DNA of 34,781 nucleotides, from IMG/VR virus record IMGVR_UViG_3300005512_000007; one strand, written 5' to 3'. The position numbers and the translations under genes were made by a program. The stretch comes from an uncultured virus (IMG/VR IMGVR_UViG_3300005512_000007) (taxonomy: Duplodnaviria > Heunggongvirae > Uroviricota > Caudoviricetes). The notes beneath the pieces were generated by a model. It did not search any database. It saw only the letters and a program-made list of their open reading frames with translations, and was not told the origin of the DNA. Positions 1,901 to 27,565 of this stretch are shown here, one piece after another; within the stretch, counting starts at the first letter, position 1; each line of letters begins with the position of its first letter.

Positions 1901-1938
1901 GTCAGTTGTTCTCCTCAGGTGGTATGGGTTGTACTGCT

Positions 1939-1968
1939 ATTTGTAATCGAGGGGTGTGACAATGTCAA
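1939..1968 (-). promoter_or_regulatory. Early promoter: TTGACA-17-TACAAA(T) with TGTCACACCC box in the spacer
   Basis: Consensus -35; same architecture at 3614-3643 and 7129-7159. Confidence 0.7.
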
Positions 1969-2402
1969 GAGACTTCTTCGACGCAGTCCTCTAGCAGGTT
2001 ACGTAGGAACTTCGACGTGAGTCGGTAAAACCGGCTTACCTCAGCGACCTTGAAGTTCCACCGAGCGTCGAGTGGGTTATGGGGACCCTCTGCGCCTCTT
2101 GGAGCGCTGTCCCAGAACGTGCTCGGGACGATGGTGATGATCTCTTCGATCTTGTCGGTGTACGTGTAGCCACGAACATCGTTCTCGACGACGAGCGTGT
2201 AGGGGAGGCCGGTGTCATCCGAGGCGAGGATGCGGTCGTTCTCTCCGGCCCAGTTCTCAAGACCGTGGCAGAGAGCGATCTCGCAGTCCCCGTACTCGTG
2301 GTCAACGGAGAGGATGCAAACGATGCCCGAGGCACCATCCGCTCCGTGGGCGTGGCGTGCGATGACCACGTGGTCGTCGCAGATGTTCTGTGGAATGTTC
2401 AT
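1965..2402 (-). CDS. Hypothetical protein (145 aa)
   Basis: AGAGGAG SD before ATG; fits operon tiling. Confidence 0.7.
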   Translation of the reverse strand: MNIPQNICDDHVVIARHAHGADGASGIVCILSVDHEYGDCEIALCHGLENWAGENDRILASDDTGLPYTLVVENDVRGYTYTDKIEEIITIVPSTFWDSAPRGAEGPHNPLDARWNFKVAEVSRFYRLTSKFLRNLLEDCVEEVS

Positions 2403-2418
2403 GAGTTCTCCTCTCGGT

Positions 2419-2574
2419 TCATGCCACGTCGGCTAAGCCGACTTCCGGTAGCCATATGATCTCGCAGGCACAGCAGGTCCACTTCTGCTGGCCCGCGTTG
2501 TCTGGCAGGTCGTAGCGGAACAGGCGCTCGGCCTTGGCTCCGCACGACGGGCAACTCTTGGGGCGCTCGGTCAT
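2419..2574 (-). CDS. Small Zn-ribbon protein (51 aa, CPSC...CCAC)
   Basis: Manual translation MTERPKSCPSCGAKAERLFRYDLPDNAGQQKWTCCACEIIW...; TGATG coupling and AAGGAG SD. Confidence 0.7.
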   Translation of the reverse strand: MTERPKSCPSCGAKAERLFRYDLPDNAGQQKWTCCACEIIWLPEVGLADVA

Positions 2575-2849
2575 CAGTTGTTCTCCTTGATGTAGATGTC
2601 AGCGCCTGAGCCAATGGTCATACCGCCACCGCCAACATCCTCGACCTTCACACCCGAGATGACCCCACGCTTGTAGGTGTACGAGATGCTGTCAGCCGTG
2701 GCCCAGTCGTGTGATGGAAGTCGTCGGTAAGTCATTCCGACCTTGAGGTCGATGGCTTTGATAGTCATATCAGTCTCTCCGCTTTGTTGTGCGAGTTCTA
2801 CGAGAGTCGGGATGAAACTCTCAGCGACTGTCACTTTGTACGTTGCCAT
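2574..2849 (-). CDS. Hypothetical protein (91 aa)
   Basis: Flanked by junction motifs; GGAGG SD. Confidence 0.75.
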   Translation of the reverse strand: MATYKVTVAESFIPTLVELAQQSGETDMTIKAIDLKVGMTYRRLPSHDWATADSISYTYKRGVISGVKVEDVGGGGMTIGSGADIYIKENN

Positions 2850-2850
2850 G

Positions 2851-3081
2851 TCAGTTGTCCTCCTCGACGAACCTGATCACGTTGTCATTGGCGCACGCCT
2901 CGCAGACGGGGAGGACGTGGATCTCACCGAGGTCGTCGGCATCGAGTTTGCCGTACACCTCGACCCTGATACCGACGGCCTCGGTCTCGGTGCCGTCCCA
3001 TGTTTCGCACGGGGTGCAAAGAACGCCCTTGCGCCAGAGCGCCCACTCGTGGTCGCCCGAGTATTCAAATGTGTCTCGCAT
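2851..3081 (-). CDS. Small Zn-finger-like protein (CTPC...CEAC)
   Basis: Two CxxC motifs; junction motifs at both ends. Confidence 0.75.
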   Translation of the reverse strand: MRDTFEYSGDHEWALWRKGVLCTPCETWDGTETEAVGIRVEVYGKLDADDLGEIHVLPVCEACANDNVIRFVEEDN

Positions 3082-3082
3082 G

Positions 3083-3373
3083 TCAGTTGTCCTCCTGTGT
3101 AGGTGCTCGTAGTTGTGGGAAGTAGACGATCTCTCTCAGTCCCATGCTGTCGTGGTCGGTTCTTTGTCTGGCGATGATGTCACCCAACTCAGTGTCAGAG
3201 AGGTGGTAGCCGAGTTGGTACATCAGTTGGTCAGTGTCTTGGGCGACGATGCCAACGCACTCGTCACCGTACATTCCACGACCGCTGTAGTCGGCGTAGA
3301 GGTCTGCGTCGGGGTCAGCCCTGCGTACCGCAAGGCTGAGGTCCCGTAGTTGGTCGCTGGTCAAAGTGGTCAT
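3083..3373 (-). CDS. Conserved phage hypothetical (YSGRGMYG motif)
   Basis: YSGRGMYGDECVGI...DSMG..IVYFP pattern recalled from phage early proteins; AAGGAG SD. Confidence 0.75.
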   Translation of the reverse strand: MTTLTSDQLRDLSLAVRRADPDADLYADYSGRGMYGDECVGIVAQDTDQLMYQLGYHLSDTELGDIIARQRTDHDSMGLREIVYFPQLRAPTQEDN

Positions 3374-3392
3374 GTCAGTTGTTCTCCTTGTC

Positions 3393-3578
3393 TCAGTTCG
3401 CTACCCAGACGGGGGCGAGAATGTCCTTGAGGGGGAAGCCGTGACCGGTGAGGTCAGGCTCGTGCCCCTCCTTGAGGTCGTTGACCATGTCTTCGGGGAG
3501 GTCCCCAGTGTGGATGAACATCACGTCGTCATCCAGTTCAAAGTAGGTGCCGGTACCGGCGTGGTAGATGATCTGCAT
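3393..3578 (-). CDS. Hypothetical protein (61 aa)
   Basis: GAGGAGG SD; first gene after the promoter at 3614-3643. Confidence 0.7.
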   Translation of the reverse strand: MQIIYHAGTGTYFELDDDVMFIHTGDLPEDMVNDLKEGHEPDLTGHGFPLKDILAPVWVAN

Positions 3579-3613
3579 GTGTGCCTCCTCAGGCGGTATG
3601 GGTTGATATGGAC

Positions 3614-3643
3614 AGTTCTAATCGACGGGTGTGACACCGTCAA
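3614..3643 (-). promoter_or_regulatory. Early promoter: TTGACG-17-TAGAAC(T) with TGTCACACCC box
   Basis: Same architecture as 1939-1968. Confidence 0.7.
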
Positions 3644-3656
3644 GGGTTTCTTTGAG

Positions 3657-3680
3657 AGTGGGGGGCTTGCGCCCCCCACT
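3657..3680 (-). terminator. 10-bp GC hairpin with GCAA loop after the VWA gene (terminator or processing stem, no U-tract)
   Basis: AGTGGGGGGC/GCCCCCCACT inverted repeat. Confidence 0.5.
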
Positions 3681-3682
3681 GC

Positions 3683-5728
3683 TCACTTGTTGAGGACACC
3701 TCGGAGTGCCCGAGTCAACTCGTCGGGCAGTTGCTCGACTTTCTTGATCTCGGCCACCTCGTCGGCACCGTACGCTTCCTTTGGGATGTAGTCGGAGGCG
3801 TAGCGCACGAGCACGATGTGGCGGTTGGGCCTCGCCCACTGCTGGAGGTCGAAGCCGTCGTTCCACTCACCGTCGGTGAAGACGATGACGAGGTGCTGTG
3901 TGGCACCCTCGTCGTTGTGGTTGTCGAGGTCGTTGAGCGCCTCGGTGGGATCGGTACCGCCGAGCGTGGGCCACACCTGAGGCTTAGGAGCACCGTCGCT
4001 CCAGATGCGGTGGTTCTGCCCGTCGCTGGACCAGAGCGTGAACGATGCTCCGATGCCGAGGTTCTGGCAGGCCAGAGCCGTGGCGTACACCGCCTCGCTG
4101 AGAGCGAGCATCGGGGCACCACCCATCGACACCGACACGTCGCAGAGCATCGAGACGTGAACGTCGAGGCCCTCGTTCGCCAGCCCGTCGAGGTTGCGGA
4201 AGAAGTCCCGATCCCCGACCTGCTTGGTGCGGTATGAGAGAGCGTCGATGGCACCCTCCTCCTGCTGGTTGCGCCAGACCGGCTGGCTCGTGGTCACGAA
4301 GTCGCTGAGAGCGTTCTCGATACCAACGGCGGTGCGATATGCGCTGGCGACCATGTAGTCAGGCATATCGGAGCCGACGAAAGTGATATCAGTCAGCCCA
4401 CCCTTGGTGACGGAGGCCACGGTGTTCTTCGTGATCTCCTGCACCTCCGAGTCGTTGTGGACCTCGGACTTGGCCTGCTTGAGCGCCTGCTCCAGAGCCT
4501 TCTGGAAGTTGTCTTGCCCCTCCTGAGGCTCCTCACCGGCACCGTTGCCGACACCGTGACCTTGACCGGAGTCAGTCTGAGCATCGTCGCTCTCGTCACC
4601 AGCACCGTCGGCACCGGCACCAGCACCGGCATCGTCGCCAGCGCTCTCGCCCTCGTCGCCCTCGGCCTTGGCACCAGCACCGTCGGCATCACCATCGTCA
4701 TCCTTGGTGTCGTCCTCGCCAGCCTCGGTAGCACCACTGGATGCCTTGTTCTCGGCCTCGTTGGTCTCACGCTCGGTGGCACCACGGTCGGGGTGGGTGT
4801 CGTGCTTCGACGTGTCATCGGGGATCTCTTGGTCGAGGAGGAACCTCGACGCTTCGATGACCCAGAACAGGAGGCGGTCGGGAGTGGTCGCCTTCTTGTA
4901 GCCGTTGACGATGTAGAGCCAGACCTCAGCCTTGGTGCCATCGTCTCCGACGTACTGGGTGTACCGGCGACGGGACTCGGCACGCAGTTCCTTCGGCAGG
5001 TAGTCACGACCGGCGAGCAGGAGCCACGAGAGGTTCTTCTGGTGATCGGTCTTGAGCAGGTGCTCGACGATCATCCGAGTGAAGTACGAGCCGATGCGAG
5101 GCACGTCCCTGACCACGGCGCACTCCATGCGCTGGTCCTCGATGGCGTTCCACGCACGGTGGGCACGCTGTGCCCACCCAGAGTTGCCGTTGTTCTTGGA
5201 GTCCTCGTCGAGGGCCTCTTCCCAGACCTCGATGGCCTTCTCCTTGAGGATCGGGAACGGGGTGGTGAACCGGAGGTGCCCCAACTCGTGCTGGAACACG
5301 CCCTTCATCTGGGCGACGGTGTCAGCGATCCGATCGGTGTCCATGACTGACCACAGGTTCTCGGGGTCGAACTTGCTCGGCCACCTGATCACGATCTGAT
5401 CGAAGTCGGTGTAGGCGGTCACCGTGCCGTCGTTCATCCAGCCGGTCTGGAGCGTGGTGGTGACGGACTGCTTGAGTCCGTAGGAGCGCATGACGGCGGT
5501 CTGGGACTCCATCGTCGAGTTCAGGATGTTCGACATGAACCGCTTGTAGTCGAAGTAGTCACGGTTCGCCTCACGGTTGACCGCCTCGTGGATCGAGCGA
5601 CGGATGGCACTACGGTGCTCGCTGAGACGCTTGTCCTGCTCACGCTTGAGTTGGTCGATGGCCTTGCGACGCTGACGGGTGACGGCCTGTCCGAGGCCAC
5701 GCTTGGGCTTGTAGTTGCTGGGAATCAT
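3683..5728 (-). CDS. VWA-domain protein with N-terminal HExxH metallopeptidase-like domain and acidic linker (CobT-like MoxR partner)
   Basis: HELGH and NAIEDQRME; D/G-rich linker; MIDAS DVSVSM...GGT...VFTDG; start reassigned to ATG 5728 after GAGGAGG. Confidence 0.85.
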   Translation of the reverse strand: MIPSNYKPKRGLGQAVTRQRRKAIDQLKREQDKRLSEHRSAIRRSIHEAVNREANRDYFDYKRFMSNILNSTMESQTAVMRSYGLKQSVTTTLQTGWMNDGTVTAYTDFDQIVIRWPSKFDPENLWSVMDTDRIADTVAQMKGVFQHELGHLRFTTPFPILKEKAIEVWEEALDEDSKNNGNSGWAQRAHRAWNAIEDQRMECAVVRDVPRIGSYFTRMIVEHLLKTDHQKNLSWLLLAGRDYLPKELRAESRRRYTQYVGDDGTKAEVWLYIVNGYKKATTPDRLLFWVIEASRFLLDQEIPDDTSKHDTHPDRGATERETNEAENKASSGATEAGEDDTKDDDGDADGAGAKAEGDEGESAGDDAGAGAGADGAGDESDDAQTDSGQGHGVGNGAGEEPQEGQDNFQKALEQALKQAKSEVHNDSEVQEITKNTVASVTKGGLTDITFVGSDMPDYMVASAYRTAVGIENALSDFVTTSQPVWRNQQEEGAIDALSYRTKQVGDRDFFRNLDGLANEGLDVHVSMLCDVSVSMGGAPMLALSEAVYATALACQNLGIGASFTLWSSDGQNHRIWSDGAPKPQVWPTLGGTDPTEALNDLDNHNDEGATQHLVIVFTDGEWNDGFDLQQWARPNRHIVLVRYASDYIPKEAYGADEVAEIKKVEQLPDELTRALRGVLNK

Positions 5729-5767
5729 TGGTACCTCCTCAGGTATCAGATGGGTATGGAGTGGTAT

Positions 5768-5802
5768 GAGAGGGGCAGGGAAGGGGGAACCCTGCCCCTC
5801 TC
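5768..5802 (-). terminator. 13-bp GC hairpin between the AAA+ and VWA genes (no U-tract)
   Basis: GAGAGGGGCAGGG/CCCTGCCCCTCTC. Confidence 0.45.
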
Positions 5803-5804
5803 GA

Positions 5805-7091
5805 TCAGACGACGCTGTCGGTTGCGTCGGTGGACGGAGCCGTGGCAGGAGCCTCGGCAGGACCGAAGACGCTCGTCGGGTACTCAGCCCTGAGCACGTC
5901 GAGGAAGCCTCGGTCTTCGATGATGGTCTGGACTCGCTCACGCTCGGCAGGAGGGAACATGCCGGTGAACACCCAGATGGCGTTGTCCACGCCGAACGTG
6001 GCGCAGTCAGCGTTGAGGCGCTGGAGGGCGCTGGTACCGACCGGCGTGGTCAGGACTCGCTGGTTGCGAGCCTCACGGATCGCACTGCCGATGCCACGGA
6101 CGGTGGGCGACGGGACGAGGGTCTCCTCGACGTTGTCGGCGTAGTCCCACGGCATCCAGCGGAACCGGTTGGTGCTGGCCTCGGCCATCGACTGCGTGCC
6201 CTTGTAGCCGGGGTTGATCGTGGCGAGGACCCAGAGGTTGGGGTTGGCCTTGATGACCTCGGGGGCATACCCACCGTGACCGTCGGGCACCGCTCGCTGG
6301 TAGTTCACGAACGAGCGCCGGTCGTCGAGCACGGGGTGCAGGGCAGTGGCCTGCGACGGAGCGACGGCGTTCCACTCGTCGAGGTAGAGGAAGCCACCGC
6401 AGTGGAGGGCACGAGGCACGAGGCCGTCCATCCAGACGAGGCTCTCTCGACCATCGACCACGACGGCGCTGGTCATGCCGAAGAGGTCGTAGTTGGAGAT
6501 GCCCACCGAGCCGTTCAGGGTGAAGATCGGGTACGGCTTGGGCAGGCCGTCACGCTCGGCTGAGAGCACGGCGAGGACCTGAACGAGCATGGTCTTGCCC
6601 GACTGGGTCTCACCGACGAGGGCGACGTTGGGGCTGTAGCCACGGCTGTCACGCTGGTCTCGCATGTGGAGCAGGTAGTCCACGTCGGTCAGGCCACCGG
6701 CCACGACTCGACTGACGTACTGCTTGACCACGTCAGTCGGGGGACGGAACTGGTCGAGCGCAGGGTCCATCGGATCGGTGATGGACTGGGCCTCGACGAG
6801 GCGACCCTGCTCGATGACGCTCAGGTCAGCGCCGACCGGCACTGGGGCTGGAGCCACCGGAGCAGGGAGCGGAGCAGGAGCGACGGACGGCAGTTCCAGT
6901 TGACGGGGGAGCACCCACGTCTCGTGGGCACTGCCGTTGGGACCGAGGCCCTCGATGGCGACGAGGACCTTGCGCTGGTGCTCGGTTCCATCGGGAGCCA
7001 CGTCGGGGCTGACGACGGAAGCGAGGTGGCCCTCGAAGGGACCGCTGGTGATCTGGACGGTGAGTCCACGGGTCAGGTGCTTGGCTTTCAT
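5805..7091 (-). CDS. MoxR/CbbQ/CobS-like AAA+ ATPase
   Basis: Walker A GETQSGKT, Walker B LYLDEWN, sensor ATINPGY, Arg finger STNRF. Confidence 0.9.
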   Translation of the reverse strand: MKAKHLTRGLTVQITSGPFEGHLASVVSPDVAPDGTEHQRKVLVAIEGLGPNGSAHETWVLPRQLELPSVAPAPLPAPVAPAPVPVGADLSVIEQGRLVEAQSITDPMDPALDQFRPPTDVVKQYVSRVVAGGLTDVDYLLHMRDQRDSRGYSPNVALVGETQSGKTMLVQVLAVLSAERDGLPKPYPIFTLNGSVGISNYDLFGMTSAVVVDGRESLVWMDGLVPRALHCGGFLYLDEWNAVAPSQATALHPVLDDRRSFVNYQRAVPDGHGGYAPEVIKANPNLWVLATINPGYKGTQSMAEASTNRFRWMPWDYADNVEETLVPSPTVRGIGSAIREARNQRVLTTPVGTSALQRLNADCATFGVDNAIWVFTGMFPPAERERVQTIIEDRGFLDVLRAEYPTSVFGPAEAPATAPSTDATDSVV

Positions 7092-7128
7092 GGTGACCTC
7101 CTCAGGTCTGGGTATGGGTTGGTTGGAT

Positions 7129-7159
7129 ATTGCTATCAGGTGGGTGTGACAGTGAGCAA
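7129..7159 (-). promoter_or_regulatory. Early promoter: TTGCTC-18-TAGCAA(T) with TGTCACACCC box
   Basis: Third copy of the architecture. Confidence 0.6.
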
Positions 7160-7160
7160 G

Positions 7161-7469
7161 TCACCCGACAGCGGTGCTGTTGGGGAACGTGCGCTTGATG
7201 AAGTGGGCGGTCTTGCCCATGCTCTGGGTCGAGCCGAGGGTGATGAGGGCGAGGTCGATGCTCCCACCCTCGTACTCCCAGATCGACACCGAGCCGTTGC
7301 GAGCCTTCCAACTGATGACGGCGAGCGTCGGACAGTCTCGGCTCTTGATCAGGGCGATGTCTCGCACCGCCTCGGACTCGCCCTCGATGTTCATGACGGT
7401 CGAGTTGGCCGTGGCCGTGATCGTGACGGCGAGCGTCCCGATCTGCTGGGTCTCGTGGAGCACGCTCAT
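7161..7469 (-). CDS. Hypothetical protein (102 aa)
   Basis: ATGA overlap; GGAGG SD. Confidence 0.7.
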   Translation of the reverse strand: MSVLHETQQIGTLAVTITATANSTVMNIEGESEAVRDIALIKSRDCPTLAVISWKARNGSVSIWEYEGGSIDLALITLGSTQSMGKTAHFIKRTFPNSTAVG

Positions 7470-7771
7470 CGCAGGCCCTCCTGCTCCTCGTAGTCATCGA
7501 CGATGGCCTCGGCCACCGCACGACGGGTGGGCACGTCGAAGACGCTCCACCAGCGGTCGCTGGGGCTGGCGAACTCCTTGCAGTAGCGACGGGCGCACTG
7601 CCCGACGACGGCCTCGATGAAGGCGACGGCCCGAGCCGAGTCATACTCGCCTCGACGTACGTGCTTGCCGATGGTGGCGAGCGCCTGCTGGACCTGCTGG
7701 TACGAGGTGGAGTCGTTGTCGATGTAGAGGCTGAGTTCGACAGCCTCGTGGTTGTAGGTGCTGGTGGTCAT
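7466..7771 (-). CDS. Hypothetical phage early protein (ELSLYIDND motif)
   Basis: GAGGAGG SD; helical acidic protein. Confidence 0.75.
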   Translation of the reverse strand: MTTSTYNHEAVELSLYIDNDSTSYQQVQQALATIGKHVRRGEYDSARAVAFIEAVVGQCARRYCKEFASPSDRWWSVFDVPTRRAVAEAIVDDYEEQEGLR

Positions 7772-7811
7772 GTTCCCTCCTCAGGGTTGGTATGGGTTGG
7801 TATGGGTAAGG

Positions 7812-7835
7812 GGGGAGGGGGTTGCCCCCCTCCCC
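7812..7835 (-). terminator. 10-bp GC hairpin with GCAA loop after the helicase gene (no U-tract)
   Basis: GGGGAGGGGG-TTGC-CCCCCTCCCC on plus strand. Confidence 0.45.
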
Positions 7836-7840
7836 GTCGG

Positions 7841-9301
7841 TCAGCGGTACGAGTCGAGGATGCCCTCGACCATGTCACCGAGGAGGTAGTCACCCTCCCC
7901 GTCGATCACCTCGCCACTGGCGAAGTTCTTGCTCTCCAGCATCCCGAAGAGGCGCTCGTCGATGGTCCAGCGACCCTCGATGTGAGCGAGGGCGATCTCG
8001 ACCTCCACGTCGTTGGTCTGGCCGATCCGGTGAAGGCGATCCTCGGCCTGACGGAGGTCAGCCGGAGTCCACGGGAGTTGGACCACGAGCACTCGGTGGT
8101 TGAGACCGTTGCCGTGGAGCGTGAGGCCAACGCCAGCCGAGATGATCTGGCCGACGAGCACTCGGGACTGACCCGAGGTGAACGCATCGACGGCCTCGGT
8201 CTTGTCAGCGTCGGACATGCCACCTCGGATGGCGACGGGGTTGTACTTGGCGAGACCGAGGAGCAGGCGATCCATCACGTCGGCGTGCTCGGCCACGATG
8301 AAGATGCCACCCTCCTGCTCGTCGAGGACCTCGGAGGCGTGCTCGACCGCCGACTTGACCTTGGCCTCGCCAGCGAGACGGCGGAGCGTCGTGAGTCGAA
8401 CGAGGGCCTCGGCACGCTCGGCACCCCGAGTGTTCCGCCCCTCCTCAGCGAGCCAGTTGATCAGGTCGTTCTCGGCCATGGCGTAGTCCTTGGCAGGCTT
8501 GCCGAGGCACTCCAGCGAGAGACCCGAGCGCCCCTTGTTGGGGAGGTCGATGACCTCGTCCCGACGACGGCGCATCATGAACGAGCCGACGAGGGCATCG
8601 TGGAGTTCGGCACCGTAGTCGTTGCCACGGCCACCCCACGAGTCCGTCTTCGGGCAGTAGCGGTTCCAGAAGAGGCCCTTGCCACCGATGTCACGCCACG
8701 CCCCAGCACCGAGCACGTCGATCTGGGAGGCGAGTTCGATGTGGCGACCGTTGGGGGTCGGGGTGCCCGAGAGCAGGACCCGAGGACCGGCGACGGAGCC
8801 AGCGATCATGGCGAGGGCCTTGGCACGCTTGCTCTTGCCGTTCTTGTGGCGGTGGGCCTCATCGACGACGACGGCACCGACTCGACCGGTCAGGGCCTCG
8901 GCCCAGTGGGCCACGGTGCTGTCACCGATCACGAGCACGTCGGCATCGGGGACCTCGGTGACCTTGGTGCCCGAGAGCACGGCCACGTCGAGCCACGGGG
9001 CGAACTTGGCGAACTCCCGAACCCAGTTGGTGCGGAGGCTCGGGGGCACGACCACGAGGCCGGTGGGGATACCGACGGCGTGGGCGCTGGCGAGCACGGC
9101 GATACCGCACGGGGTCTTGCCGAGGCCCATGTCGAGGGCGAGGTACGCCCACGGGCTGTTGGCCGTGTCACGGAGAGCGTGGGCCACGGCCTCCTGCTGG
9201 AAGTCGAGCAGGGGCAGGGCGAGATCGACCGGAGTGATCGAGGTGCCGATGGTGGTTGGCGCTGGAGCGGAGCCAGCGAGCAGGTCAGCAAGGGTGGTCA
9301 T
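7841..9301 (-). CDS. SNF2-family (SF2) helicase/ATPase
   Basis: LDMGLGKT, DEAH, LSGTP, GVGLTL, QAEDRLHRIGQ. Confidence 0.93.
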   Translation of the reverse strand: MTTLADLLAGSAPAPTTIGTSITPVDLALPLLDFQQEAVAHALRDTANSPWAYLALDMGLGKTPCGIAVLASAHAVGIPTGLVVVPPSLRTNWVREFAKFAPWLDVAVLSGTKVTEVPDADVLVIGDSTVAHWAEALTGRVGAVVVDEAHRHKNGKSKRAKALAMIAGSVAGPRVLLSGTPTPNGRHIELASQIDVLGAGAWRDIGGKGLFWNRYCPKTDSWGGRGNDYGAELHDALVGSFMMRRRRDEVIDLPNKGRSGLSLECLGKPAKDYAMAENDLINWLAEEGRNTRGAERAEALVRLTTLRRLAGEAKVKSAVEHASEVLDEQEGGIFIVAEHADVMDRLLLGLAKYNPVAIRGGMSDADKTEAVDAFTSGQSRVLVGQIISAGVGLTLHGNGLNHRVLVVQLPWTPADLRQAEDRLHRIGQTNDVEVEIALAHIEGRWTIDERLFGMLESKNFASGEVIDGEGDYLLGDMVEGILDSYR

Positions 9302-9347
9302 GGTTGGTCCTCCTTAGGACTCGTTGTGTATGGGTATGGGGAGGGTA

Positions 9348-10016
9348 TCAGACGGCTGTCGTCTGACCCCAAGGTAGGTCGTGGTGACCGGCGCAGACCG
9401 GCCCGTAGCCGACCTCGATGGAGCGCTCGTCGGTGAGATCACGGGCGCAGAACATGCACACGCCCGTGGTGTGGCCGTACTCGGAGGCGATCCGAGCGAG
9501 GGCCTCGCCCTTGAGGATCACACCCTGCTGGGCACGCTGGAGCAGGCCGGACTCGTAGGTCCAGCGCCCCTCGACGAGGCGCTTGCCGTACGGGCGACCG
9601 CTCTTCCCAGCGACGATCATGATCACGTCGTCGCCCAAGGCGACTAGGTCCCCCGTCTGGGGATCGCACTGGGGAGCCTGCTTCGGCTGAGCGAGGCGCA
9701 CGACGTGGGGGCGCTGTTTGTCGGACAGCGAGCCACGCTTGTCGTACTGCTGGATCAGCGACGAGGCGAAGGCCATGTCACGGGGATCGAGCGTCGGCAG
9801 GGCCTGACGGAGGGCCTCGACCTCGGCCTTGAGGTCGTCGTCCTCGGGCTGGGGATCACGGGGCACCGTCTGGAGCACGGTGATCAGGGCGCTGGCCTCC
9901 TTGCTGGTGTTGCAGGGCATGGCGAGCACGTTGGCGTGGGTCGAGCCGAGGGCGGTGGTGCGCTCGGCGCAGAGGTTGGCGATGAAGAGTCGCTGGCGGT
10001 CGGTGACAGGGTTCAT
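9348..10016 (-). CDS. DUF6011-type Zn-binding protein
   Basis: C-terminal CMFCARDLTDERSIEVGYGPVCA; start reassigned to ATG 10016 after GGAGG. Confidence 0.8.
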   Translation of the reverse strand: MNPVTDRQRLFIANLCAERTTALGSTHANVLAMPCNTSKEASALITVLQTVPRDPQPEDDDLKAEVEALRQALPTLDPRDMAFASSLIQQYDKRGSLSDKQRPHVVRLAQPKQAPQCDPQTGDLVALGDDVIMIVAGKSGRPYGKRLVEGRWTYESGLLQRAQQGVILKGEALARIASEYGHTTGVCMFCARDLTDERSIEVGYGPVCAGHHDLPWGQTTAV

Positions 10017-10093
10017 GGGTTCCTCCAGAGGGAGACGAACACGGCGATGGCCGTGAGGCTGACGGGGATGAAGTAGAGCAGGGCGACGAGCAT
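10013..10093 (-). CDS. Small membrane peptide (26 aa)
   Basis: MLVALLYFIPVSLTAIAVFVSLWRNP fills the gap and is coupled to both neighbours. Confidence 0.5.
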   Translation of the reverse strand: MLVALLYFIPVSLTAIAVFVSLWRNP

Positions 10094-10095
10094 GA

Positions 10096-10335
10096 TCACC
10101 AAGCCGTCGAGGCAATGTCGTTGAAGTGATCGGCCCAGCCGTTGTGGCTGGCGACGGCCTGACGGACGGCACCGGCCACGGTGCGAGGCTTGCCCGACTC
10201 GGTCCAGCCGAACTCCTCGACCAGTTCCTTGTCGGAGTAGCACTCGTCGATGACCGAGCAGGTGTAGCGACCAACCTTGGCGTGATCACGGATGGCCTCG
10301 ACGATCTCGTCGGCGTGGGGATGTTGAATGGACAT
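10096..10335 (-). CDS. Hypothetical protein (79 aa), first gene of the left operon
   Basis: AAGGAGG SD. Confidence 0.75.
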   Translation of the reverse strand: MSIQHPHADEIVEAIRDHAKVGRYTCSVIDECYSDKELVEEFGWTESGKPRTVAGAVRQAVASHNGWADHFNDIASTAW

Positions 10336-10354
10336 GGTTGGACCTCCTTAGGTC

Positions 10355-11025
10355 TCTGTGGGTAGGGCACCGGAGTGTGCCCCCACCGGCCACGACGATG
10401 GTGAATCGTGACCAGTGGGCGCACCCTCCGGCGAGGGTGCAGTACGTCGAGCGTGGGGTAGGTAATCAGCCCCAGAGTCAGGGGTCGTGCCCCATCACCG
10501 TTGCCGTTCGTCGCACTCTTCAGCGTCGGTGTCATCGCAGGGTTGCCGTTGCCCACCCTGCCGTCCGCTGGTGCTGTCTTTCACTTCCAACGATGACACC
10601 GTGCTGAACACTCACTTGCCGCTCTCTCCCGTACTTGCCGGACTGTCTCGCCGTCTGCCCGTCGGTACTCCGTCGGGTTCGGACTCAAGCCCTGCCACGT
10701 TCCTCGCCCCCGAAGGGGAGGCCGTCTGTCGCTGGTCGTATGACTCACTGAGTACATACCGAGGGGGTCATATGCCCTCGGTATCGGGGTGGGTTCGCAT
10801 CCCCGTTGTTCGTCGCTCTCCCAGCCCGTCCAAGGCGGTGGGGGTAGTGCTGGAGTACCAGCCCCCCAGTGCCCGTTCAGGGTGGGTTCGCTATCTCGGC
10901 AGACCGTGGCGCTCCCCTCGGTCCCACCGTCACCCTCTCACCGGTCCGTCCTGACTGAGCATCCTCGGACTCGGTGGCACTGGGCGACGGGGGCATCTCG
11001 TGGGTCGCTCCCCGGCGACAACTCC
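10355..11025 (-). ncRNA. Candidate large structured RNA or leader of the early operon
   Basis: Many nested stems; cUUCGg loop and a G-U pair read correctly on the minus strand; no credible ORF. Confidence 0.5.
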
Positions 11026-11295
11026 AGTAACTCATGGCGACCCCGAGATAACCAAGGAATCGGGGAAGAATCTTTATTTATTTTGCTGAATGAGTATGCA
11101 GGGTCCCCCGACACGGCCCCCCGAGATCCTGCTTCTAGGACATAGATACGTGTAGGGGAGAGAGACCGAGAGAGTGACACAGGATTCAGGGGAGTAGCGG
11201 TAGCAACTGTGTCAGTGGTGGATGACACAGTTGTACCTACCAACACCAGCGAACGTGTGTCATTAGTCACAGCGGTAGGCCCAGCCGTCGGGCAG

Positions 11296-11311
11296 TGTGA
11301 CCTTTGTCACG
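11296..11311. promoter_or_regulatory. CRP/GlxR-like site TGTGA-N6-TCACG
   Basis: One mismatch to TGTGA-N6-TCACA. Confidence 0.45.
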
Positions 11312-11562
11312 TGATTCTGGCACTTGCCCCCATTGCCCCCTGTATGCCCCTCTGCCGAGAGTGGGGGCGATATGACGTGGTAGTGCGGGAGGGGGCGAGA
11401 TCGGAGCACCAGCGCGATTTCCACATGCTGGGGATAACCCCGGAAACCCTTGTGGCACAACGGTTTACCGGTGGGTAACCGAGATTCGACGTCCACAGGG
11501 TTTTCAACAGGTTTGGAGGGGGTATCTACAATCACATCAGGGTTTCTCGGGGCGATTTCCAC

Positions 11563-11576
11563 AGAACATATGTTCT
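11563..11576. promoter_or_regulatory. LexA (SOS) box-like AGAAC-ATAT-GTTCT
   Basis: Matches the Gram-positive GAAC-N4-GTTC core. Confidence 0.5.
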
Positions 11577-11590
11577 TGTGGATAAAACAG

Positions 11591-11606
11591 GGTGACAAAT
11601 GTCACA
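11591..11606. promoter_or_regulatory. CRP/GlxR-like site GGTGA-N6-TCACA
   Basis: One mismatch to consensus. Confidence 0.45.
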
Positions 11607-11619
11607 CAAATGCCCTTGA

Positions 11620-11634
11620 CAAACACATGTTCGA
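11620..11634. promoter_or_regulatory. LexA box-like CAAAC-ACAT-GTTCGA overlapping a TTGACA
   Basis: Close to actinobacterial TCGAAC-N4-GTTCGA. Confidence 0.45.
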
Positions 11635-11936
11635 TCCGTTGTCCACAGGGGGTGTGGATAACCCGCCCCCCGGAAACCCTTGTAAATCAAGGGGGAGCAC
11701 GACTTGACAGGGTTGTCAAGGGGTATTTATCCACAGGCAGAGACCCCCCCACCCTTAGATATCCACAGGTTGTGGACAAAGGGGTAGATCACACCAGCCG
11801 AGGACTGTGACAATGGCCACATAGGCCCCTACAAAAATGCTGCCACTCGATAATCGGCCCCACATATAGGCCCGTATGAGAATTCGGCCCCACACTGAGT
11901 GCTGAAGTAGTAACTTAGTCCTCGGAGGTAGAAGGA

Positions 11937-12383
11937 ATGACGTTAGGACCACAGTTCTATCCACGACACGAGTCCGTTTCCAGCAATATCAGTTTGCGTA
12001 AAGACGCACCGCTGTACCACGGTACTGGTGGTGAAATTGAAGGCGGCGTAGTCCGACCAAGTGCTGACTACGTTCTGGACGGTCGAGGACTCGCTTTCTC
12101 CGCAGAGTCACCTTCCACTGCTGAGTACTACGCAAGGCTGGGAGCCAAAGGGCAGGGTCGCCTGTTCGGGACGGTCTATGAGGTAGAGCCGATGTCGGAT
12201 GATGCAAAAATAACCGAAACAATCGGCGGTAAATCCGTCGTCACCGACCCAGAGGGTCTGAGAACCAAAAGGGCTGTGAGTTTCCCTGCCGTTCACGACT
12301 ACTCCGAAGAGCACAAGGCCCTAGCGGAAGAGCGCAAAGCCCATGCGGAAGCCGTTGATCGAATCATGGAGTTCTTTAGATGA
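11937..12383 (+). CDS. ADP-ribosyltransferase-fold protein (YHGT type) with MTLGPQF N-terminus
   Basis: LYHGT...AFSAES..AEYYA...VYEVEP resembles Arr/PARP-like ART cores. Confidence 0.65.
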   Translation: MTLGPQFYPRHESVSSNISLRKDAPLYHGTGGEIEGGVVRPSADYVLDGRGLAFSAESPSTAEYYARLGAKGQGRLFGTVYEVEPMSDDAKITETIGGKSVVTDPEGLRTKRAVSFPAVHDYSEEHKALAEERKAHAEAVDRIMEFFR

Positions 12384-15502: not shown

Positions 15503-15784
15503 ATGCTTGACGATGACCTGCTGACACTGGAGTCGTTTCTTAGCGATTACAGAGAGCGCGATTGGATCAAGAAAGCCGCGTGTCGCGGCATGGATACCGA
15601 TCTGTTCTTTCCTGAGCGTGGCGAATCTACCCGAGAAGCCAAGGCTGTCTGTGAAACCTGCACGGTAAGACAGGAGTGCGGGGAATATGGGTTTATGGAA
15701 AAGATCGGCATTTGGGGTGGCACTACTGAGTACTACCGACGCCGCATCCGAAGCCAAAATCACAAAGAGTTATCCACAGGGTAA
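15503..15784 (+). CDS. whiB: WhiB-family Fe-S transcription factor
   Basis: AAC..DTDLFFP...AKAVCETCTVRQEC...GIWGG. Confidence 0.95.
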   Translation: MLDDDLLTLESFLSDYRERDWIKKAACRGMDTDLFFPERGESTREAKAVCETCTVRQECGEYGFMEKIGIWGGTTEYYRRRIRSQNHKELSTG

Positions 15785-16304: not shown

Positions 16305-16790
16305 ATGGATAGTAAATCTTACACAGACAACGAACTGATAGATGCCGTGAAGTCCTCTTTCAGTATTAGCGAAGTACTTAGACGTCTTGGTCTACAGCCT
16401 GCGGGCGGCAACTACAGAGTATTCCACCAAAACGTAAACAGGTTAGGATTAGACACCTCTCATTTTACGGGACAAAAATGGAGAAAAGGAGCCAGAGAAT
16501 CAGTAGTTAAACGCAAGCCGCTAGAAGAGTTACTTGTTTCAAACAGTTCGTACAGCACCTATAGACTTAAGAACAGACTAATAGAAGAAGGCGTTTTTGA
16601 GAGGAAGTGCTCAAGTTGCGGACTGTTGGAGTGGATGGGTGTTCCTATGCCGTTAGAGTTAGAGCACATTAACGGCACCAACAATGACCACAGGCTTGAA
16701 AATCTATGCCTTTTGTGTCCGAATTGCCACGCCCTGACAAGTACCTACAGGGGTAGAAACAAGAAAAAGCGAGCGGGATTGGTGGAATAG
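16305..16790 (+). CDS. HNH endonuclease with N-terminal DNA-binding domain, tRNA-associated
   Basis: CSSC...LELEHING..NDHRLENL.LLCPNCH; AT-richer than neighbours; last 6 codons overlap tRNA-Leu. Confidence 0.92.
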   Translation: MDSKSYTDNELIDAVKSSFSISEVLRRLGLQPAGGNYRVFHQNVNRLGLDTSHFTGQKWRKGARESVVKRKPLEELLVSNSSYSTYRLKNRLIEEGVFERKCSSCGLLEWMGVPMPLELEHINGTNNDHRLENLCLLCPNCHALTSTYRGRNKKKRAGLVE

Positions 16791-16856
16791 GCAGACACGA
16801 GGGTCTTAAACACCCTTGCTCATAAGAGCGTACCGGTTCAAGTCCGGTATCCCGTA
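16773..16856 (+). tRNA. tRNA-Leu(UAA)
   Basis: Acceptor GCGGGAT/ATCCCGT; anticodon stem AGGGT/ACCCT with loop CT-TAA-AC; long variable arm; ACCGG-TTCAAGT-CCGGT; discriminator A. Confidence 0.93.
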
Positions 16857-16861
16857 CCCAA

Positions 16862-23292: not shown

Positions 23293-23356
23293 TCCACTCC
23301 TGAGTTCACCCCACGTTGTACACTGGGTGTGACCCGTGCCACAAGGAGGTGCTCCA

Positions 23357-24097
23357 TTGGGCATCAAGATCCTGACCATCGATATTGAGACGCGCCCCAG
23401 TCTTGCGTACGTGTGGGGGCTGTGGGACCAGAACGTCGGCCTCAACCAAGTCGAGGAGTTCGGCACCGTTCTTTCTTGGGCCGCGAAGTGGTACGGAGAG
23501 AAGAAGGTCCACTTCGCCTCTGACTACCACGACGGCCACGACGCCATGATCGAACGGGCGTGGCAGATGCTCGATGAGGCTGATGTAGTCGTCGGCTATA
23601 ACAGCAAGTCATTCGATATGAAGCATCTCAATAGGGAGTTCGTATTGGCTGATATGCCCCCACCCTCGCACTACGCTGATGTCGATCTTCTCTCCGTCGT
23701 CAAGCAGCGCTTCAAGTTCGCATCGAACAAACTTCAGCACATCGCTGTGGAGTTGGGCATCGGGTCTAAGATCCAACACGACGGATTCGACCTGTGGGTC
23801 GGGTGTATGCGTAACGAGGAAAAGGCGTGGCGCACCATGAAGCAGTACAACATGCAGGACGTTGTGCTGACCGAACAGGTGTACGAGCGTCTGCTCCCAT
23901 GGATCAAGAACCATCCCCATCAGGGTCTCTACGACGGTGATTTGGACGCCTGCCCCCGCTGTGGACACGAGGATCTCGTCGTCAACCGCTATTACCGGAC
24001 CCGTACCGGGAAGTACCGCATCATGCAGTGTAAGGCGTGTGGCGGTTATAGTAAGGATAGTAAGGTGATCGAAAAGGTCACCCAGACGACCATTTAG
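23357..24097 (+). CDS. RNase H-like/DnaQ-type 3'-5' exonuclease with C-terminal Zn ribbon
   Basis: IDIET...GYNSKSFD...YNMQDV; CPRC...CKAC; TTG start after AAGGAGG. Confidence 0.85.
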   Translation: MGIKILTIDIETRPSLAYVWGLWDQNVGLNQVEEFGTVLSWAAKWYGEKKVHFASDYHDGHDAMIERAWQMLDEADVVVGYNSKSFDMKHLNREFVLADMPPPSHYADVDLLSVVKQRFKFASNKLQHIAVELGIGSKIQHDGFDLWVGCMRNEEKAWRTMKQYNMQDVVLTEQVYERLLPWIKNHPHQGLYDGDLDACPRCGHEDLVVNRYYRTRTGKYRIMQCKACGGYSKDSKVIEKVTQTTI

Positions 24098-27526: not shown

Positions 27527-27565
27527 TAACTCATAACCACTAAATATCCTACGGAGGATAAAACC

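Follow-up and report, generated by a model that had tools for sequence, protein, structure and literature searches.

The 34,781-nt stretch of DNA analysed here (the window; IMG/VR record IMGVR_UViG_3300005512_000007, from an uncultured virus of the Caudoviricetes) is a partial phage genome with two divergent arms, and its minus strand carries a recurrent start-site element in which the Shine-Dalgarno (SD) sequence can fold into a small RNA hairpin preceded by CCAUACC-like repeats. The minus-strand arm (~1-10.4 kb, GC 59-68%) holds non-structural genes, in particular those of a DUF6011 protein, an SNF2-type helicase, an AAA_5/MoxR-like ATPase and a 681-aa acidic protein, together with many small open reading frames (ORFs). 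The plus-strand arm (11.9-34.8 kb, GC ~55%) holds a WhiB gene, tRNA-Leu, and the terminase, portal, major capsid and tail-fibre genes, and the GC contents of the two arms differ by ~10 points.

The exact 10-mer CCTRAGGAGG occurs six times in the window (positions 3584, 5734, 7097, 7776, 9309 and 10343; 0.13 expected), always on the minus strand, and none of 100 shuffled sequences reached this count. An ATG follows each core by 4-7 nt and opens an ORF of 61-681 codons; across sites, the motif consensus is NNCCTRAGGAGGNN. The hairpins, the leader repeats listed with them and one plus-strand variant are:

10341..10354, minus strand: SD hairpin GACCU-AAGG-AGGUC; ATG 10335, 79-aa ORF, the first gene past a 1.6-kb non-coding region; -6.1 kcal/mol
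9328..9339, minus strand: overlapping repeat CCAUACCCAUAC in the leader of the SNF2 gene; the tandem is retained in the related locus L062
9307..9320, minus strand: SD hairpin GUCCU-AAGG-AGGAC; ATG 9301, SNF2-type helicase of 486 aa; not the minimum free energy (MFE) structure in its 50-nt leader
7789..7805, minus strand: tandem (A)CCCAUACCA repeats, between a GC hairpin and the SD hairpin
7775..7786, minus strand: SD hairpin CCCU-GAGG-AGGG; ATG 7771, 101-aa ORF
7095..7108, minus strand: SD hairpin GACCU-GAGG-AGGUC; ATG 7091, AAA_5/MoxR-like ATPase of 428 aa; -7.4 kcal/mol
5753..5768, minus strand: CAUACC-ACU-CCAUACC repeats within the 681-aa gene's leader
5732..5745, minus strand: SD hairpin UACCU-GAGG-AGGUA; ATG 5728, 681-aa protein
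3583..3594, minus strand: SD hairpin GCCU-GAGG-AGGC; ATG 3578, 61-aa ORF
1910..1920, minus strand: degenerate or hybrid copy ACCUGAGGAG, joined to the spacer of a second start class (below), AACAACUGAC-AUG; without a 3′ arm, not a hairpin; repeat family D3
27546..27559, plus strand: variant SD hairpin AUCCU-ACGG-AGGAU in front of the major capsid gene (ATG 27566); 7.2 bits with covariance model R1 (below)

A preliminary description of this DNA had placed six SDs in such hairpins, and its stems and positions were found as given, with all seven coordinates correct. The degenerate seventh copy that it reported is present as well, but with its 3′ arm missing it scores 7.9 bits (E 1.8) with the covariance model of 22 sites, which is at noise level. 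The isolated hairpins have folding energies of -4.9 to -7.4 kcal/mol, and the hairpin is the MFE structure in five of the six leaders; at site 9320, the MFE structure instead has a CCCUC:GGAGG pairing that involves the upstream leader. In the MFE structure of the 681-aa gene leader, the start AUG is also paired with an upstream CAU.

The hairpins are found where a gene is preceded by a long gap. In particular, the upstream gap measures at least 46 nt in seven minus-arm genes (10335, 9301, 7771, 7091, 5728, 3578 and 1900); six of them have the hairpin and the seventh has the hybrid copy, in contrast to none of the seven close-packed genes with gaps of at most 19 nt (hand-computed Fisher test, p ~0.002; one 26-codon ORF was left out of the comparison).

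The CCATACC word has 15 matches in the window, compared with 3.4 expected. Seven of these are in minus-arm leaders (1927, 3601, 5759, 7117, 7795, 7805 and 9339), seven more read as the antisense of GGT-ATG-G codons that are in frame in plus-arm ORFs and have no relation to the leaders, and the remaining match is on the plus strand at 1188. An exact copy lies no more than ~30 nt upstream of five of the six hairpin sites and of the degenerate seventh, while site 10354 has only CCCUACCCA; the earlier claim that CCAUACC-like repeats precede most hairpins was thus borne out. The 38 nt preceding the hairpins contain 43% C, 26% A and 13% G, and among 22 leaders of the window and its relatives, ACCCAT occurs in 15 and CATACC in 14. 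Moreover, orthologous leaders keep the number and the place of the repeats while their flanks diverge; in distant relatives the leaders are still C/A-rich and the repeats differ (for example, CAACAA in L082).

The plus-arm GGTATGG words (12512, 12932, 14236, 15228, 22093, 24656 and 26466) are all in frame 0 and read Gly-Met-G..; by our estimate, the in-frame word is commoner in the plus arm than expected.

Compensatory changes in the outer stem pairs

Sites were selected by the core CCTNAGGAGG and a start codon in the window and in all related loci, which come from uncultured aquatic viral and metagenome contigs, and the flanks were ignored during selection. Of the 26 distinct sites obtained, 22 belong to the clade of the window. 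Among these 22, the first flanking pair (the bases adjoining CCU on its 5′ side and AGG on its 3′ side) is complementary at every site, compared with a permutation mean of 9.1 (p < 1e-5), and it includes GC (8), AU (6), UA (4), CG (3) and UG (1) combinations. The second flanking pair is complementary at 13 of 22 sites (permutation 6.6, p = 1e-5), and the third at 1 of 22 (permutation 1.8). The resulting covariation score is 0.371, compared with 0.063 after shuffling (0 of 500 as high) and with at most 0.085 when the 3′ partner is slid. As controls, the core at four start-like sites of distant loci is paired in one case, and at five non-start sites it is also paired in one. The core also contains a DNA palindrome, CCTNAGG, but the covariation has its centre in the RNA hairpin and not in this palindrome.

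The same exchanges are seen between orthologous leaders. Double changes occur in the leaders of the AAA ATPase gene (A-U in the window, G-C in L077 and L088), of the SNF2 gene (U-A in the window, G-C in L062) and of the 681-aa gene (A-U in the window, G-C in L077), and the leader of the 101-aa gene has C-G in the window, U-A in L062, where the protein is identical at 44 of 96 positions, and a U.G intermediate in L076. Because the outer stem pairs change compensatorily in both paralogous and orthologous leaders, the comparison supports a conserved hairpin and an element that acts at the RNA level.

The preliminary description had proposed that the outer pairs change in compensation and had pointed to homologous leaders as the place to look further, and covariation was found in both, double changes in orthologs included. 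It had also suggested a search with a covariance model. A model built from the 22 sites (R1) did return variants beyond the exact-core sites, but only weak ones (12.7-19.6 bits), so that it adds little to the sequence pattern.

As a separate candidate, a restriction-site reading of CCTNAGG was considered and rejected: the window has 14 such sites compared with 8.7 expected, 7 of them in start regions, and elsewhere the site is neither avoided nor enriched.

Distribution, portability and flanking elements

The strict form of the hairpin is limited to the window's clade (the window, L061, L065-L068, L062, L076, L077, L088, L098 and two sites of the record G004). A scan of viral contigs for CCATACC...CCTRAGGAGG returned 60 loci, of which six (L011-L013 and L034-L036) are from related phages and the others resemble chance matches. 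Inspection of related loci by eye revealed other registers, including GCCC-AAGGA-GGGC, GCCU-GACAAGG-AGGC, UGCC-AAGGA-GGCA and GAUAC-GGAG-GUAUC; these variable registers fit a general occlusion of the SD better than a single fixed operator sequence. More distant relatives of the phage have GAAAGGA-type SDs, some of them within small hairpins. The variant hairpin of the major capsid gene is identical in L168 and is reduced to a 4-bp AUCC/GGAU stem in L169, whose capsid protein is 91% identical, while the flanks diverge. The structure is therefore not strictly early, as the preliminary description had supposed, since a similar hairpin stands before a major capsid gene.

The leader is portable between unrelated genes. 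The identical leader precedes genes of unrelated proteins, one of 70 aa in L061, whose AAA ATPase is 97% identical, and one of 53 aa in L077. Further, the starts in L062 and L077, like the hybrid copy at 1910-1920, join the hairpin of the first start class to the spacer ACAACUGAC of a second one. This second stereotyped start, GGAG(R)ACAACUGACAUG, has five copies on close-packed small genes (family D3), each with the stop codon of the upstream gene inside:

1529-1551, 1893-1915, 2842-2864, 3074-3096 and 3366-3388, minus strand: copies of the second start class, containing the TGA stop of the upstream gene

Its sequence GGAGRACAAC agrees with the T4 RegB/S1 consensus GGAGRAYARAA at 9 of 11 positions, which may be chance (PMC3014915; here and below, published systems are described from the available excerpts of the cited papers).

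The gaps upstream of the hairpin genes contain GC hairpins without a U tract (-15 to -30 kcal/mol, z -3.6 to -6.7), a 44-nt promoter-like block, or both:

9343..9370, minus strand: hairpin that spans the DUF6011 stop codon and lies upstream of the SNF2 leader; -15.1 kcal/mol, z -3.9
7812..7835, minus strand: 10-bp GC hairpin with a GCAA loop, lacking a U tract, 25 nt upstream of SD hairpin 7786; -25.6 kcal/mol, z -3.6
7111..7154, minus strand: 44-nt promoter-like block (TGTCACACCC ... GAT-TAnnAnT ... CCCAUACC), copy 3; repeat family D4
5768..5802, minus strand: 13-bp GC hairpin upstream of the 681-aa gene leader; -29.8 kcal/mol, z -6.5
3653..3685, minus strand: GC hairpin with a GCAA loop, upstream of promoter-like block 2; -28.5 kcal/mol, z -6.7
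3596..3639, minus strand: 44-nt promoter-like block, copy 2; repeat family D4
1921..1964, minus strand: 44-nt promoter-like block, copy 1; repeat family D4

The 44-nt blocks are putative promoters. The word TGTCACACCC is invariant in the block spacer, and in relatives (L069-L071, L075 and L122) the same word forms perfect palindromes, CTGTCACAC..GTGTGACAG. These palindromes immediately precede the SD of the AAA ATPase gene in those relatives, where they look like the operator of a DNA-binding regulator.

Readings of the element and known systems

The explanation that we prefer, and to which we give a little more than even credence, is that the element forms a stereotyped and portable module for translation initiation in an aquatic actinophage, cis-acting in the mRNA and similar to the SAS/ESAS elements of other actinobacteriophages. 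The layout, gap association, covariation and portability described above are observed, whereas the mechanism is a proposal that can be tested directly. The module serves the genes of the non-structural arm that need de novo ribosome recruitment, with a gap of at least 46 nt. Its upstream part is an unpaired leader, poor in G and rich in C and A, in which C(C)AUACC is repeated one to three times, and its downstream part a maximal SD, RAGGAGG, whose last AGG and 1-2 spacer bases pair with the upstream NNCCU to form a 4-5 bp stem with the 4-nt loop RAGG. The calculated cost of the hairpin is ~5-7 kcal/mol, compared with a gain of ~11-12.5 kcal/mol from the duplex between the SD and the anti-SD (...CACCUCCUUUCU at the 3′ end of the 16S rRNA, read in three 16S genes of the family to which one metagenome-assembled genome (MAG) bin belongs; the three MAGs themselves lack 16S genes). 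Because the duplex gain exceeds the hairpin cost, the hairpin would not block initiation but would damp and standardise it at an SD that is otherwise very strong. The RAGG loop could be a toehold for the anti-SD, and the unpaired C/A-rich leader could be a standby platform for the ribosome. A structured SD beside an unpaired flank is the situation treated by the ribosome standby-site model and seen with C/A-rich translational enhancers; this model is, however, a general principle and not a family of elements, and it does not predict an exact CAUACC repeat.

Several results weigh against the cis-acting module or limit its support. Compared with dinucleotide shuffles, whole leaders have no extra stability (z -1.0 to +0.8), and it is therefore the covariation alone that carries the structural case. 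The 22 sites come from about four lineages that include near-identical phages, and are thus non-independent, and the inner three pairs are invariant through the search pattern and hence uninformative. Across 52 non-redundant orthologous leaders of the AAA ATPase gene from the wider family, there is no overall excess of structure in the SD region (mean z -0.19), so that the hairpin is specific to the clade and not to the family. Moreover, CAUACC is exactly conserved across phages whose AAA ATPases are just 66% identical, which a merely unstructured leader does not explain, and neither the promoter-like blocks nor the GC hairpins lacking a U tract were called in a sigma-70 and terminator scan of the window.

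Among described elements, those nearest to this one are the SAS/ESAS of Cluster K mycobacteriophages and of Cluster EF Microbacterium phages, which were described in 2011 and whose function was still unknown in papers of 2024-2025 (PMC3203893; PMC11373665). As in Clusters K and EF, an over-conserved motif (10-13 nt) lies at the ribosome binding site (RBS) a few nucleotides before the start codon (3-9 nt in SAS, where it is mostly ATG; 4-7 nt before an ATG at all six sites here) (PMC3203893; PMC11373665), and, as in Clusters K and EF, many copies share one orientation in the non-structural arm (here six of six on the minus strand, 3.5-10.4 kb, the capsid variant aside). Further likenesses to the Cluster K SAS are its presence on genes of different families with large upstream gaps (more than ~50 bp for SAS; six of seven versus none of seven here), conserved bases that cannot pair with the 16S rRNA (here the CCU, which is invariant at all 22 sites but was included in the search pattern), and a linked upstream block of ~45 nt, which holds a promoter in SAS/ESAS and is promoter-like here. 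In contrast, the consensus GGGATAGGAGCCC of Cluster K and GGGAAAGGACCCC of Cluster EF does not match NNCCU-RAGG-AGGNN, the form found here. In the Cluster K SAS, symmetric and unvarying GGG/CCC flank the SD, whereas here it is the SD itself that pairs with the 5′ arm, and the outer pairs covary; upstream, a direct CAUACC repeat takes the place of the 17-bp inverted repeat of the Cluster K ESAS. The ESAS block of ~46 bp combines a SigA-like promoter with an imperfect 15-17-bp inverted repeat just upstream of the SAS; the promoter-like 44-nt block found here in three copies has no inverted repeat and is not called by the sigma-70 scan. The Cluster EF phages have ten copies of the 13-bp RBS motif GGGAAAGGACCCC with weakly conserved upstream sequence and a role described as unknown (Jacobs-Sera et al. 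2020, PMC7302621); in addition to the difference in consensus, the available excerpts of that paper do not report covariation for EF (PMC7302621).

A literature search, which was not exhaustive, returned no account of this motif or of a covarying SD hairpin among phage start motifs. Relative to the available excerpts of the SAS papers, what is new is that natural compensatory changes show a SAS-like start motif to be read as an RNA hairpin that includes the SD. The module also marks the joints at which unrelated genes are swapped, and it bears on how acquired genes are kept expressed in mosaic phage genomes.

The fourU and ROSE thermometers mask the SD with weak or non-canonical pairs that melt in the physiological range; the stems here are C-G rich (-4.9 to -7.4 kcal/mol at 37 °C). 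In CsrA/RsmA sites the GGA lies in the loop of a short hairpin over the SD, and here it straddles the loop and the first stem pair; to our knowledge, CsrA is not expected in Actinomycetota. The MS2 coat-protein hairpin is a phage translational operator. T4 has translational operators for RegA and gene 43 (PMC3014915), and the MS2 and T4 operators are likewise small hairpins at the initiation region whose stem may vary if pairing is kept, but they have a known protein reader and reader-specific bases, whereas the invariant bases here belong to the SD or to the pairing. As with T4 RegB/S1 targets, a GGAG lies in the SD of genes of a non-late class; RegB, however, needs an unpaired GGA and the A-rich 3′ context GGAGRAYARAA, whereas the GGA here is half paired and its 3′ flank is C-rich (PMC3014915). 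RNA secondary structure shields GGAG from RegB in T4 (PMC3014915), so that the hairpin argues against a RegB-type target, and a Pfam scan of the 50 window ORFs revealed no RegB-like family. The preliminary description had named CsrA and RegB as precedents; neither family was found in the 50 ORFs.

The SD hairpin and the CAUACC repeats could instead be the operator of a phage-wide post-transcriptional regulon, a reading that we consider doubtful. A single protein of the phage or the host would bind the hairpin, the repeats or both, or an RNA would pair with them, and the genes would thereby be co-regulated through repression, activation or cleavage; the reader may be a family-less protein from a small ORF, a host factor, or an RNA from the unseen half of the genome, and it may time or set translation at all non-structural ribosome-entry points. 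A trans-acting reader would fit the uniform geometry at 22 of 22 sites, though the search pattern imposes the 4-nt loop, and it would fit the conserved number and place of CAUACC among diverging flanks, for which no cis role accounts; the authors of the SAS papers likewise suspect a reader (PMC3203893; PMC11373665, available excerpts). However, the 50 ORFs contain no CsrA, RegB, Hfq, S1, KH or other RNA-binding Pfam family, although most of the small ORFs are without any family, the SD or the pairing already accounts for every invariant base, and the stem register and loop size vary in relatives. No mirror (complementary) sequence was found: the plus-strand matches in the window (at most one mismatch) are sense-strand start sites, and on the reverse strand G003, G005 and G006 have one match each and G002 and G004 have none, with no match conserved (the window and these records being incomplete); the same three 16S genes contain no complement of CCCAUACC, not even a 6-mer. 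From the earlier proposal of an RNA element recognised to switch early translation, the RNA level is thus retained, while its recognition finds no RNA-binding Pfam domain among the 50 ORFs. If the regulon reading were true, it would make RNA operators of SAS-type elements throughout the actinobacteriophages, and the natural compensatory variants of this clade would be the system in which to prove it.

Two further explanations are less favoured. Cluster A mycobacteriophage stoperators are asymmetric sites in short intergenic regions, in one orientation to transcription, that are bound by the repressor. The one-orientation CCATACC repeats agree with them in orientation and intergenic position, as far as a window known from sequence alone can be compared, and they could be sites for a transcription regulator that go with the promoter block and not with translation, which we judge improbable. 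In favour of such DNA-level sites, CCCATACC has three copies at a fixed 10-12 nt past the promoter-like -10 element inside the 44-nt block, CATACCC is similar to the spacer motif GTCACACCC, clear palindromic operators (TGTCACAC..GTGTGACA) occupy the same leaders of relatives, L082 has an inverted CATACCCCC pair around its -35 element, and the ESAS were found to contain promoters (PMC11373665, available excerpts). The covariation of the stem, centred as it is on the RNA hairpin, would remain unexplained, though, and CCATACC repeats are also found downstream of GC hairpins without a visible promoter block, with every leader copy on the transcribed strand. Least probable, and very unlikely in our estimate, is that the leaders are only a recombination scar, alike through cassette exchange at gene junctions, with the function of an ordinary SD. 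Unrelated genes headed by the same leader would be expected from such exchange, as would the hybrid copies (1910-1920, L062 and L077) that mix the class-1 hairpin with the class-2 spacer, but the copies differ exactly at the paired positions and are complementary there at 22 of 22 sites, which requires selection on structure, and the invariant CCU is unable to pair with the 16S rRNA at its 3′ end.

Relatives, host and other features of the window

Megablast found no close relatives of the window in the phage collection, where the top protein match of the helicase has ~30% identity, and the motif was not found in the nearest record (G001, a 6.8-kb fragment). The 68-kb relative G002 shares the two-arm layout with unequal identities (capsid protein 91%, AAA ATPase 66%), and the window is therefore mosaic and not chimeric; the mosaicism relative to G002 (loci L062 and L169) is strong. 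Four related contigs belong to MAG bins assigned to Lysinibacter, Ilumatobacteraceae, Actinomycetota and, once, Rhodospirillaceae. Because the phage carries a WhiB gene and related contigs are in Actinomycetota bins, the host is most likely an aquatic actinobacterium.

15503-15784, plus strand: gene for a transcription factor of the WhiB family (Pfam E 4e-19), which marks actinobacterial phages

The WhiB product could act on the conserved promoter-like blocks. The 681-aa protein (minus-strand gene 5728-3683) has an internal Gly/Ala/Asp/Glu-rich repeat tract (4534-4716; direct repeat families D1 and D19); PHROGs places it weakly among cobalamin-chelatase-like proteins, and its gene adjoins that of the MoxR-like ATPase. 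From its DxSxS motif, and not from a Pfam hit, we read a vWA fold in this protein.

An Rfam search of the window returned the tRNA as the sole match; the ORF of an HNH endonuclease (16305-16790, plus strand) overlaps the 5′ end of this tRNA-Leu(UAA) (16773-16858). A gene for a DnaQ-like or PolB-exonuclease-like protein with a Lar-like C-terminus (23336-24097, plus strand) has an unusual location between the terminase and portal genes. Finally, 7 of the 14 window matches to the DnaA-box consensus TTATCCACA (at most one mismatch; 4.7 expected window-wide) cluster at 11429-11779 on both strands, within the non-coding region between the divergent arms (10360-11940) and near GTGAC-N-GTCAC palindromes, which suggests a replication origin with DnaA boxes at 11429-11779.

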